A DNA stretch of 64,000 nucleotides, taken from the NCBI RefSeq assembly GCF_050320075.1, contig NZ_CP190018.1; one strand, given 5' to 3'. A program made the position numbers and the translations under genes. This document shows, piece by piece, positions 41,606-44,025 of this stretch (position 1 is the first letter of the stretch; every line of letters begins with the position of its first letter). The notes under the pieces are model-generated. The model did not search any database. It was not told the DNA's origin and saw only the letters and a list, made by a program, of their open reading frames with translations. The stretch is from Escherichia coli. Lineage in GTDB: Bacteria > Pseudomonadota > Gammaproteobacteria > Enterobacterales > Enterobacteriaceae.

Positions 41606-43741
41606 TTAACCACCTTCATCATCATGATCCTGTGCAAGTAAAAGGCCGTACACCCTTAGTCGTGCCCCCTTCATGTGCTTAAGACGTGGTGTTCTGATTT
41701 GCCATCCTTCCCCGCTGGCTGGCTTTTTCAGCATTCCGGCTTCGTGAAGGGCTCTTGCTACGGCATCCTTGTTAAATCCCTTCGCCACATGCGATTTAAA
41801 TGGCTCCGGCAGGACGTAAAACAAAACAGGCTCACCGTAACGCCCCTCGCTTTCCCTGTAGCCGTACAGTTCTGAAATCGGCAGGCTTGCAGGGTCATAA
41901 TTGACAGGCGCAAACCTGCTCATGCCGTAGGCAGTAAGAAATGCCTCTGCCTGTTCAATAATCTGCCTGTGTTCCTTGTTACCCGTGCCGAACTCCTTCA
42001 CCCAGGCATTAAAGTTATGCTGAATGGCATCACAGCACGTCTGAACATTCCAGCCCGTAACATGACCGGACAGCACAAGCGCGGCCTCCAGTATGGCGAA
42101 TCGTTCCCCTACGCGATGAACCTGTTCGCCGTAGCTCTCCGGTATTAGGTTGCGCCACCGTTCACGGCACGCCCTTACCGTGTCCTTAGCCTCCTGCTGG
42201 TGGGCTGCCAGCCATTTAACCCATTCACGACCCGCCGCCCCGTGGTTTTCTGTCCAGGCGGCTTTTAACGCGTCTGCGTGCGCCTTTCCTGTGCTGTATT
42301 CGTGAAACTGCGTAGACTTCTCCATCGGCACGTTAAGCAACCTGACAAGCTGCCCCGCCTTGACTTTTATCCCCTCACTTTTGAGGAATGTTTCAACATC
42401 CATTTCTCCGGTACTGATCGCCACCGTGCGCCAGTGTTTTATCTCCCGGTTGCCGCCGTCCTTCGCCCCCTGTAATTTCCCGGAACCGTTAAACAGCGTA
42501 TAGGCTGACGTGGACACCTCCCGCGCGTTTCCGGCCTGGCCTATTTCATCCAGGGGTAACAGCCCGTCGTTGTGCGCCTCTGCCTCGTTAGCGATACCTA
42601 ACGCTGTGCCGTACCAGGTCAGCCGTTGCGCGTCCGGCTCTCCCCATAAACTTGATGCGATGTTCTGTGTGGTGGTTTTCCCTGCCGATGATTGTTCGAA
42701 AAGATGTACCCCGAAGCCGTCAGCGCCCACCAGCCCGATTAATGGTGCTGATAACGATACCGCCACACCCAGCATCATGGACGGATTACCACCAGCCAGT
42801 CGCGCCACTGTATCGCGCCAGCCCTCTGTCGTTCCTGCTACGGAATAACCATTAACGGCAGCCGTTTTTCCGGTAAACAGGATCGGTTTTTCAGACTCAC
42901 CAATGACTGAACCGTCCGGCATGATGTACGCGCCAAAATGCCACCCCGTTGTTGTGCTTAACTGCCATTCCTCATGGTTTCCGTTTAACTGCATCCAGTC
43001 AGCCAGGATAGCCCTGTATTTGCCGTTGGTTGTCACATTGAGTCCGTGGTCTTTCAGCAGCCGCCAGCCGTCACGGTCGCCAATGCCACCGCACGGGATC
43101 GCCATTGTGATGACTTCATGATTTGCTAATTTTTTCCAGCGCATCACGCGGTAATGCTCTTTACCGATCGTTCCCGTTCCCAGTAGTTCAAGCGGGGAAC
43201 ATAACCACGCCTCAGGCCGGATAATTTCGCCTGACTGTTTGTCAACTTTGGGCGTTACCCAGAAAACACCATCGGCGCGACTTTCAACGCGGGGTTTTAA
43301 TTCATCATCGCCCTGGCTTTCTGTGATTTTTTTCTTTAAGGGCAACACCAGACTTTCCCCGCGCTCGTATTCGTCTTTGAGGCGAGGCAACTGGTCGGAT
43401 AAATCCGCCGGGCTGGTGTCAGTTATCCCCGCATATTCGTATACGGTCTTCACGCCAGCCACAGCCAGCAATGTGACGATCTGTGTAAGGCTACGTTCAG
43501 TGATGTGCCCTGCGCGGTAAACACGCACACACTGACGGCTATCATCAATAATCTGATAACCGGTAATATCTTTCAGGTGTTCATCTGACAGAACGACAGG
43601 CGGCACATTGTCGGCGGCAATATGCTTACCTGCCCATTCCTGCCACTCTTTCGCATGGCTCCACGCATCACTACCCGCAAAAATGATAACCTCCGTCATT
43701 TTGTCGGCTGGCTGGTGCTTTAAGTTCGGTGCGCGTTTCAT
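41606..43741 (-). CDS. replication protein, primase/helicase-like P-loop NTPase (satellite/PICI Pri-Rep type)
   Basis: 711 aa; Walker A-like SSAGKTT (~aa 351-357) and Walker B LLPLDEIG (~aa 394-401) after a ~340-aa N-terminal domain. Start overlaps the upstream 95-aa ORF stop. Family assignment is inferred. Confidence 0.55.
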   Translation of the reverse strand: MKRAPNLKHQPADKMTEVIIFAGSDAWSHAKEWQEWAGKHIAADNVPPVVLSDEHLKDITGYQIIDDSRQCVRVYRAGHITERSLTQIVTLLAVAGVKTVYEYAGITDTSPADLSDQLPRLKDEYERGESLVLPLKKKITESQGDDELKPRVESRADGVFWVTPKVDKQSGEIIRPEAWLCSPLELLGTGTIGKEHYRVMRWKKLANHEVITMAIPCGGIGDRDGWRLLKDHGLNVTTNGKYRAILADWMQLNGNHEEWQLSTTTGWHFGAYIMPDGSVIGESEKPILFTGKTAAVNGYSVAGTTEGWRDTVARLAGGNPSMMLGVAVSLSAPLIGLVGADGFGVHLFEQSSAGKTTTQNIASSLWGEPDAQRLTWYGTALGIANEAEAHNDGLLPLDEIGQAGNAREVSTSAYTLFNGSGKLQGAKDGGNREIKHWRTVAISTGEMDVETFLKSEGIKVKAGQLVRLLNVPMEKSTQFHEYSTGKAHADALKAAWTENHGAAGREWVKWLAAHQQEAKDTVRACRERWRNLIPESYGEQVHRVGERFAILEAALVLSGHVTGWNVQTCCDAIQHNFNAWVKEFGTGNKEHRQIIEQAEAFLTAYGMSRFAPVNYDPASLPISELYGYRESEGRYGEPVLFYVLPEPFKSHVAKGFNKDAVARALHEAGMLKKPASGEGWQIRTPRLKHMKGARLRVYGLLLAQDHDDEGG

Positions 43742-44025
43742 TTCTTGCCCCCAGTAACCAGCATTTCGCGGATTTTGCGGATATATCTTGCTGCACGGTT
43801 CTGATTTACGGTTTCACGATGATCCACCAGCGTAAAATCACGCTGGAACTGATAAACAGGCATCACGCAGTCATATTCGTATCCTTCACGGCGGTAGGTC
43901 ATGCGTCGTTCACTCACGCCCTTAATCATTACCGTGCTGCCGTATTTATCGCGGTAAATATCGCCGTGCATGAATTCAGGACGAGTTTTACCGCTGGCAG
44001 TAAAGCCAGAATTTTTTGCTTTCAT
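43738..44025 (-). CDS. hypothetical protein (95 aa), translationally coupled to the primase-like gene
   Basis: ORF stop overlaps the downstream start (ATGA); basic C-terminus; no recognisable domain by eye. Confidence 0.45.
   Translation of the reverse strand: MKAKNSGFTASGKTRPEFMHGDIYRDKYGSTVMIKGVSERRMTYRREGYEYDCVMPVYQFQRDFTLVDHRETVNQNRAARYIRKIREMLVTGGKK

Follow-up and report, generated by a model that had tools for sequence, protein, structure and literature searches.

Two overlapping genes on the minus strand of a 64,000-nt stretch of Escherichia coli DNA (contig NZ_CP190018.1; this whole stretch is referred to below as the window) encode proteins of 711 and 95 amino acids (aa). We read the element that carries them as a Gram-negative phage-inducible chromosomal island (PICI), a phage satellite residing at tRNA-Pro(GGG), and the gene pair as its replication module, composed of an initiator-helicase without a primase and a protein of the RgdR family; we give this reading a probability of roughly 0.8. 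The module is an ordinary member of a known satellite class, of which it represents the rarer variant with a DUF927 core.

The list of open reading frames (ORFs) places the 711-aa ORF at 41606-43741 and the 95-aa ORF at 43738-44025, both on the minus strand. At their junction, GGCAAGAAATGAAACGC, the ATG of the 711-aa ORF shares four nucleotides (ATGA) with the TGA of the 95-aa ORF. An earlier note on this DNA had described a 711-aa ORF with a P-loop whose start overlaps the stop of a basic 95-aa ORF, and the ORF list, the coordinates and the motif positions all agree with that description, which had only left the minus strand of both ORFs unstated. RefSeq labels the two products 'DUF927 domain-containing protein' and 'DUF4222 domain-containing protein', respectively. 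The parts of the module are the following:

41606-43741, minus strand: predicted initiator-helicase of 711 aa, whose gene is called 'pri' or 'pri-rep' in Gram-negative PICIs
43337-43741, minus strand: N-terminal domain (aa 1-135), apparently non-catalytic, α/β, weakly Toprim-like, common to PICI replicases of three helicase superfamilies
41942-43291, minus strand: DUF927 MCM-like AAA+ helicase core by homology (aa 151-600)
42671-42691, minus strand: Walker A motif SSAGKTT (aa 351-357), aligning with 8tch and 5dgk
42539-42562, minus strand: Walker B motif LLPLDEIG (aa 394-401), aligning with 8tch and 5dgk
41609-41941, minus strand: C-terminal domain (aa 601-711), putative iteron recognition, co-varying with the iterons
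41446-41580, unstranded: predicted origin, cluster A, with four CTTGTCCCR repeats, a spacer of ~52 bp (71% AT) and two inverted copies
43738-44025, minus strand: 95-aa DUF4222/RgdR-family protein, with a small β-barrel and, after it, a basic C-terminal helix

The sole Pfam match of the 711-aa protein is DUF927 (residues 174-435, E = 9.5e-46); given this match and its length of 2.1 kb, the ORF is not a product of chance. A search of the PDB with the single sequence found the 'pathogenicity island protein' of a Staphylococcus aureus pathogenicity island (SaPI; 8tch) and the helicase Cch of the staphylococcal cassette chromosome mec (SCCmec; 5dgk), with the Walker motifs in register. A profile built from 46 diverse relatives matched the same two structures at 3.2e-43 (8tch) and 1.5e-31 (5dgk). 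The α protein of phage P4, on the other hand, gave no significant BLASTP match to the 711-aa protein (best E = 1.5). On the strength of the DUF927 match, the two profile matches and the lack of similarity to P4 α, the motor is by homology a Cch/SaPI Rep-type, MCM-like AAA+ helicase, and not a superfamily 3 (SF3) helicase. The expectation of the earlier note that the NTPase differs in class from the P4 α type is therefore supported, as is its placement of the protein in replication, since a DUF927 helicase is followed directly downstream by its cognate iterons. The protein has in common with SaPI Rep and Cch the DUF927 AAA+ core with its Walker A and B motifs, an origin that directly follows the gene on its 3' side and has opposed iterons flanking an AT-rich spacer and, here on comparative evidence, an iteron specificity set by the C-terminal domain. 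It differs from them in that the sequence relation is distant (E = 1e-14 with the single sequence), the host is Gram-negative, an extra N-terminal domain of 135 aa is present, and the island contains no separate pri gene or primase of the CCPol-MP type.

The N-terminal domain does not resemble a functional primase. Residues 1-135 matched no Pfam family, and no Toprim, zinc-ribbon or archaeo-eukaryotic primase (AEP) family was matched anywhere in the 711-aa protein even at E ≤ 10. An alignment of the domain from 32 diverse sequences, down to 20% identity, left only A4, G23, A26, P48, L56 and G78 invariant; no Asp, Glu, His or Cys was conserved throughout, and neither a catalytic Glu nor a DxD motif nor a zinc ligand was found. 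The positions where the Glu and the DxD of Toprim would be expected read A-G-S-D-A and R-A-G, the window protein having AGSDAW and not EGYATA. Comparison by hhalign of the profile of the domain with P0241, with P4 α and with the aligned Toprim regions of 22 long relatives returned nothing. We keep an assignment to Toprim tentative because a Foldseek search of the PDB with the model of the domain found nothing significant; it may represent a Toprim that has degenerated.

The same domain, at 40-85% identity, forms the N-terminus of replicases from sibling islands with other cores. Behind it stand AAA_25 (RepA type) in locus L002, D5_N+DUF5906+Pox_D5 in strain CFT073 and in loci L003-L005, and DUF927 here. 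The Pri protein of CFT073 aligns with P4 α over α residues 324-756 only (E = 1e-112), and hence the primase half of α, with its zinc motif and EGYATA, has been replaced by the shared domain. The protein P0241 is 60% identical to the 711-aa protein over aa 144-706 and carries Zn_Ribbon_Prim and Toprim_3 where the latter has the N-terminal domain. An N-terminal Toprim-like α/β domain ahead of a ring helicase is also found in the fusions of zinc ribbon, Toprim and helicase of the T7 gp4/Twinkle type and in P0241-like DUF927 proteins; the domain described here differs from theirs in being much shorter and in lacking the zinc ribbon, the catalytic Glu and the DxD, so this is a likeness with unproven homology. 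The designation of the 711-aa protein as a primase in the earlier note is contradicted by the failed family searches, by the lack of invariant acidic, Cys and His residues, and by the real primase module that P0241-like relatives carry at this place; it is very unlikely that the protein is a primase. Because it contains no primase active site, we infer that priming comes from the host DnaG. In E. coli, the tip of SSB (the binding protein for single-stranded DNA) binds DnaG and the χ subunit of DNA polymerase III. The SSB encoded in the island ends in a tail, ...DDPYEDEIPF, that resembles this acidic tip recruiting host replisome proteins.

The origin lies directly downstream of the replicase gene (rep). 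Cluster A begins 26 nt past the rep stop codon, and reads from the gene-proximal side as two close-packed CTTGTCCCR repeats, the spacer and four opposed repeats, in agreement with the layout of opposed iterons around an AT-rich spacer described for SaPI and PICI origins (PMC6092414, PMC9371898). The iterons of the island are CTTGTCCCA, and 10 of the 14 TGTCCC[AG] sites of the 64-kb window fall in cluster A and in a second cluster, B. Three related replicases point to the part of the protein that matches the iterons. The one from L095 is identical to the window protein in its N-terminal domain (100%), nearly so in its core (95%) and only 36% identical over aa 601-711, and its iterons are TAACCCGCA. 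The C-terminal domain of L097 is 88% identical to that of the window protein, and the iterons there are a close variant, GT[TC]GTCCCA. Finally, L005 combines an N-terminal domain of 76% identity to that of the window protein with a P4-α-like core and GGTAGACA iterons. Iteron specificity therefore tracks aa 601-711 and not the N-terminus, and these residues would be the ones that read the iterons, which agrees with SaPI Reps, whose C-terminal domain is a winged helix (PMC9371898). Replicases of the DUF927 type have exchanged their C-terminal 110 aa together with the iterons as one unit, as seen when L095-L097 are compared with the window. The replicases of E. coli PICIs are mosaics, and the comparisons set out clearly the units of recombination, namely the RgdR-family gene, the N-terminal domain, the motor, and the C-terminal domain together with its iterons.

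In the mechanism that we propose, the 711-aa protein would be a self-loading initiator-helicase built from three independently exchangeable modules, namely the N-terminal α/β domain, the DUF927 motor and an iteron-reading C-terminal domain. By analogy with SaPI Rep (PMC9371898), its C-terminal domains would bind the iterons flanking the AT-rich spacer that lies directly 3' of the gene, upon which the DNA would melt and hexamers would assemble and unwind it with ATP; both the hexameric ATP-dependent helicase and the melting of the origin are predicted from homology. Primers would be laid down by the host DnaG, possibly recruited via the island SSB tail, the N-terminal domain, or both. As for the 95-aa ORF, its stop codon overlaps the start codon of rep, and translation of rep is probably coupled to it in a compact operon. 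The 95-aa protein may follow its orthologues, which act in trans on host transcription (LEE1 up, motility down), and in the prototype island the protein is dispensable for the replication of a pri-ori plasmid.

The 95-aa protein is basic (pI 9.94, with 20 Lys and Arg against 11 Asp and Glu) and matches the Pfam family DUF4222 at 1.7e-24. It is 67% identical (E = 4e-44) to C1493, the RgdR orthologue of CFT073, which is likewise encoded immediately upstream of a PICI replicase. RgdR (ECs1581) is a 99-aa DUF4222 protein from O-island 51 of enterohaemorrhagic E. coli that is an activator of LEE1 and type III secretion and a repressor of motility, and whose binding to DNA is weak and non-specific (PMC3378721, PMC10877973); C1493 can substitute for it, and in the published mutants residue 20 affected activity (PMC3378721). 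At aa 20-22 the window protein has HGD (H20-G21-D22) in place of the RGD motif that gave RgdR its name, and it differs further in its shorter length and in a divergent C-terminal helix. It is best read, by analogy with these small, basic members of the same family, as a trans-acting factor of the RgdR type, whose regulatory effects are known from ECs1581 and C1493 only. Any link between RgdR and a replicase is not discussed in the paper on RgdR (Flockhart 2012, PMC3378721). When 50,697 phage records were searched by tblastn with the 95-aa protein, only two weak matches came up, which supplied no useful context. In a lambdoid prophage of CFT073, a 79-aa DUF4222 gene (L086 15192-15431) stands beside the excisionase gene (xis), far from any replicase, and the family is therefore not confined to the neighborhood of replicases.

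The gene pair sits between yejM/tRNA-Pro and yejO. The tRNA-Pro(GGG) gene occupies 46974-47050 and is adjoined by an integrase gene. A 10-bp attachment (att) core, GGCACGAGAG, is present at 38796 and again at 46979, with core identity limited to these 10 bp, and CGTATAACTAAA repeats near both island ends (38879-38890 and 46831-46842) are likely arm-type binding sites of the integrase; together they bound the island at ~8.2 kb. All of its genes are on the minus strand, in the order int, alpA, C4/isrK RNAs, icd-like gene, 61-aa ORF, DUF4222, rep, origin, ssb, proQ/finO, perC, second iteron cluster and cos-like site. The features around the module are:

45523-46767, minus strand: tyrosine integrase, adjoining tRNA-Pro
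45078-45269, minus strand: gene for an AlpA-like helix-turn-helix protein
44597-44673, minus strand: isrK RNA (Rfam, 61.6 bits, above the gathering threshold)
44485-44572, minus strand: C4 antisense RNA (Rfam, 78.7 bits, above the gathering threshold)
44243-44431, minus strand: icd-like gene, in the array immediately upstream of the module together with the 61-aa ORF
44065-44250, minus strand: 61-aa ORF between the icd-like gene and the DUF4222 gene
40944-41369, minus strand: SSB (TIGR00621 match, 1.7e-16)
40372-40908, minus strand: ProQ/FinO-domain protein, between the SSB and PerC genes
39167-39289, unstranded: cluster B, with three close-packed and three spaced CTTGTCCCA-type copies around a 75% AT spacer

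This organization agrees with that of Gram-negative PICIs, in which a unidirectional int-alpA-pri array is followed, 3' of pri, by an origin whose two sets of iterons flank an AT-rich region (PMC6092414). The integrase lies at one end beside the att site, int, alpA and pri are arranged unidirectionally, the origin behind the replicase gene has an AT-rich region between its two sets of iterons, and the element is small (8.2 kb) and devoid of phage structural or lysis genes. A PerC gene is, moreover, frequent in Gram-negative PICIs (PMC10111431). Among the ORFs and annotations of the 8.2-kb island we found no capsid, terminase, lysis or interference genes, and PADLOC detected no defense system among eight island proteins. 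The closest described counterpart is EcCICFT073, the prototype (Fillol-Salom 2018), which shares int, alpA, the icd-like gene, the DUF4222 gene (c1493), the replicase, the iteron origin, ssb and perC. There too the DUF4222 gene overlaps pri by 4 nt (ATGA), and the replicase begins with the same N-terminal domain. The prototype differs in its SF3 core (D5_N+DUF5906+Pox_D5), 41% identical to P4 α residues 324-756, where the window protein has DUF927, in its iterons (GGTAGA, where those here are CTTGTCCCA), and in its capsid-related genes, none of which occurs in this island.

Several other observations concern the neighboring features. The C4 and isrK RNAs form an RNA immunity cassette of the P1/P4 type that heads the operon with both ORFs, upstream of the icd-like gene, and a terminator-like hairpin (44618-44602) lies within this region. 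The ProQ/FinO protein could be an RNA chaperone for these RNAs. The arrangement of SSB and ProQ genes also follows the DUF927 replicases in L095-L097. In L095 (NZ_CP159170.1 2558756-2574047), the DUF4222-DUF927-SSB-ProQ module lies inside a capsid-forming PICI with capsid, protease, portal, HNH and P27-family terminase genes, and with an IS66 element between alpA and icd. Near the far end of the island, the stretch 39052-39132 shares 80.7% identity over 81 nt with the cos site annotated in the Shiga toxin phage phiP27, and is probably the packaging site of the island. A wider segment, 39018-39164, is kept at 85-95% in many other E. coli loci; when the region downstream of perC in CFT073 was aligned with the cos-like stretch, no clear similarity was found.

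Cluster B lies 2.2 kb from the origin, beside the cos-like stretch, and carries a GTATATATATAC flank. L097 retains a near-identical cluster B despite its own origin iterons, and its origin has a second sub-cluster with the same layout as cluster B and the same TTTTGTATATATATAC flank; the sibling islands with other cores contain one iteron region only. We rejected the idea that cluster B is a recent inverted duplicate of the origin, since the spacers of clusters A and B are unrelated and since cluster B is conserved in L097, where the origin iterons differ. It may be a partner of the origin comparable to crr of P4 or acting in copy control, or else it is possibly a relic of recombination.

The comparison with P4 extends to the whole replication region. 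In both satellites an origin-binding helicase is encoded with iterons directly 3' of its gene (crr in P4) and a second, distant iteron site, crr of P4 lying directly 3' of α and ori 4.5 kb away, and in both a C4/CI-type RNA is located upstream and an AlpA-like gene is present. The helicases themselves are different, P4 α being an SF3 helicase with an active zinc-motif and EGYATA Toprim primase and without sequence similarity to the 711-aa protein. The small P4 proteins are also unrelated to DUF4222: hhalign gave ε a probability of 0.1% against the DUF4222 profile, and the same was found for P4 ORF106. The earlier note had likened the 95-aa protein to P4 ε while seeing no sequence similarity between them. 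The latter remark was correct, and the length of 95 aa common to both is coincidental.

Other readings of the module were weighed against ours. The 'pri' and PHROG 'DNA primase' labels imply a bifunctional primase-helicase whose N-terminal domain makes primers. We regard this as highly improbable: beyond the failed Pfam searches and the missing invariant Asp, Glu, His and Cys described above, the match to phrog_1139 spans profile positions 284-887 of 895 and leaves the N-terminal ~280 positions unmatched, and the domain measures 135 aa compared with ~320-350 aa in real primase halves. The island could instead be a decayed remnant in which the pair of rep and DUF4222 genes no longer functions. 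Its size of only 8.2 kb, the lack of capsid, terminase and interference genes, a truncated ash-like pseudogene annotated by RefSeq and ~1.3 kb of non-coding DNA at one end would fit such decay. All core ORFs are intact, however, the two clusters have matching iterons, neither the cos-like site nor the C4/isrK RNAs have been lost, and a comparably gene-poor PICI, EcCIMP1, has been mobilized experimentally (PMC11773190). Moreover, at least six complete E. coli genomes contain identical DNA, and 22-24 complete genomes, from different hosts and countries, contain DNA of at least 99% identity (partial matches occur in 586 of 5426 complete genomes). We hence consider decay quite unlikely, though somewhat less so than priming by the N-terminal domain.

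Two further alternatives concern the 95-aa protein, which the earlier note had proposed as a co-regulated accessory factor. It might be a dedicated replication subunit that binds the N-terminal domain and serves in helicase loading or regulation or in the recruitment of the host primase. The overlap on which this idea was based is real and conserved: a DUF4222 gene precedes a replicase with this N-terminal domain in 80 of 80 IMG/VR loci and overlaps it by ATGA in 79 of them, whatever the core (65 D5/DUF5906, 11 RepA, 1 DUF927, 3 truncated), although all of these loci are close enterobacterial relatives and do not amount to 80 independent events. The same arrangement is found in CFT073, L002-L005 and L095-L097, and SCCmec operons offer a precedent in small proteins encoded upstream of Cch-type helicases (PMC7581432). 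Against an accessory role stands the pri-ori plasmid of EcCICFT073, pJP2027, which lacks 252 of the 300 nt of c1493 and still replicates (PMC6092414). Its forward cloning primer maps to L087 10198-10218, in the terminal 48 nt of c1493, with 44 nt remaining to the pri ATG; the insert is placed by this primer only, as the reverse primer found no position on L087. Because a plasmid that starts inside the 3' end of c1493 replicates, a required accessory role for the 95-aa protein is unlikely. The distances of DUF4222 and of the N-terminal domain, in addition, hardly correlate (Mantel r = 0.115; the N-terminal domain and the core give 0.436), and co-evolution of the two was dropped as an argument. 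The DUF4222 gene beside xis in the lambdoid prophage also lies away from replicases. Upstream of distant DUF927 replicases with the N-terminal domain, from low-GC organisms (L089, L091, L092 and L094), where DUF4222 was sought, small overlapping ORFs are present that are not DUF4222; in L089, L092 and L094 the upstream ORF is unrelated. Together with the membership in the RgdR family and the lack of similarity to P4 ε, this leaves the dedicated subunit an unlikely proposition. We see an equally small chance for the idea that the RgdR-family protein and the 135-aa N-terminal domain form a helicase-independent adaptor, used on DUF927 (AAA+), P4-α-like SF3 and RepA (AAA_25) motors, which links the motor to host machinery, for instance by bringing in DnaG to stand in for the primase domain that was lost. 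If it were true, the effects of RgdR on type III secretion and motility would be side effects.

Some points weigh against our own reading of the pair as an initiator-helicase without primase and an RgdR-type factor in a PICI. pJP2027 had a D5-type Pri and an inducible promoter, so that a role of DUF4222 in the native DUF927 context is possible. A novel priming chemistry in the N-terminal domain is formally possible. The steps of helicase action, origin melting and pairing of the C-terminal domain with the iterons are derived from homology and comparison. Finally, the island has a cos-like stretch as its only trace of packaging, and its mobility is putative.

We found no description in the searchable literature of one apparently non-catalytic N-terminal domain common to three helicase superfamilies, of iteron specificity being assigned to the C-terminal domain, of RgdR natively sitting directly upstream of a replicase, or of the second iteron cluster. 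The overall picture of PICI biology is unchanged by these findings. They suggest, however, that calling this replicase 'primase' or 'pri' is likely a misnomer, as is probably the case for other E. coli PICI replicases that share its N-terminal domain; such satellites would then depend on host priming. They also predict directly, for each 9-bp iteron, the 110 residues that would read it. RgdR, known only as a regulator of virulence and motility, is tied to a native place immediately upstream of a PICI replicase, and this placement may help to work out the role of the family for the satellite.

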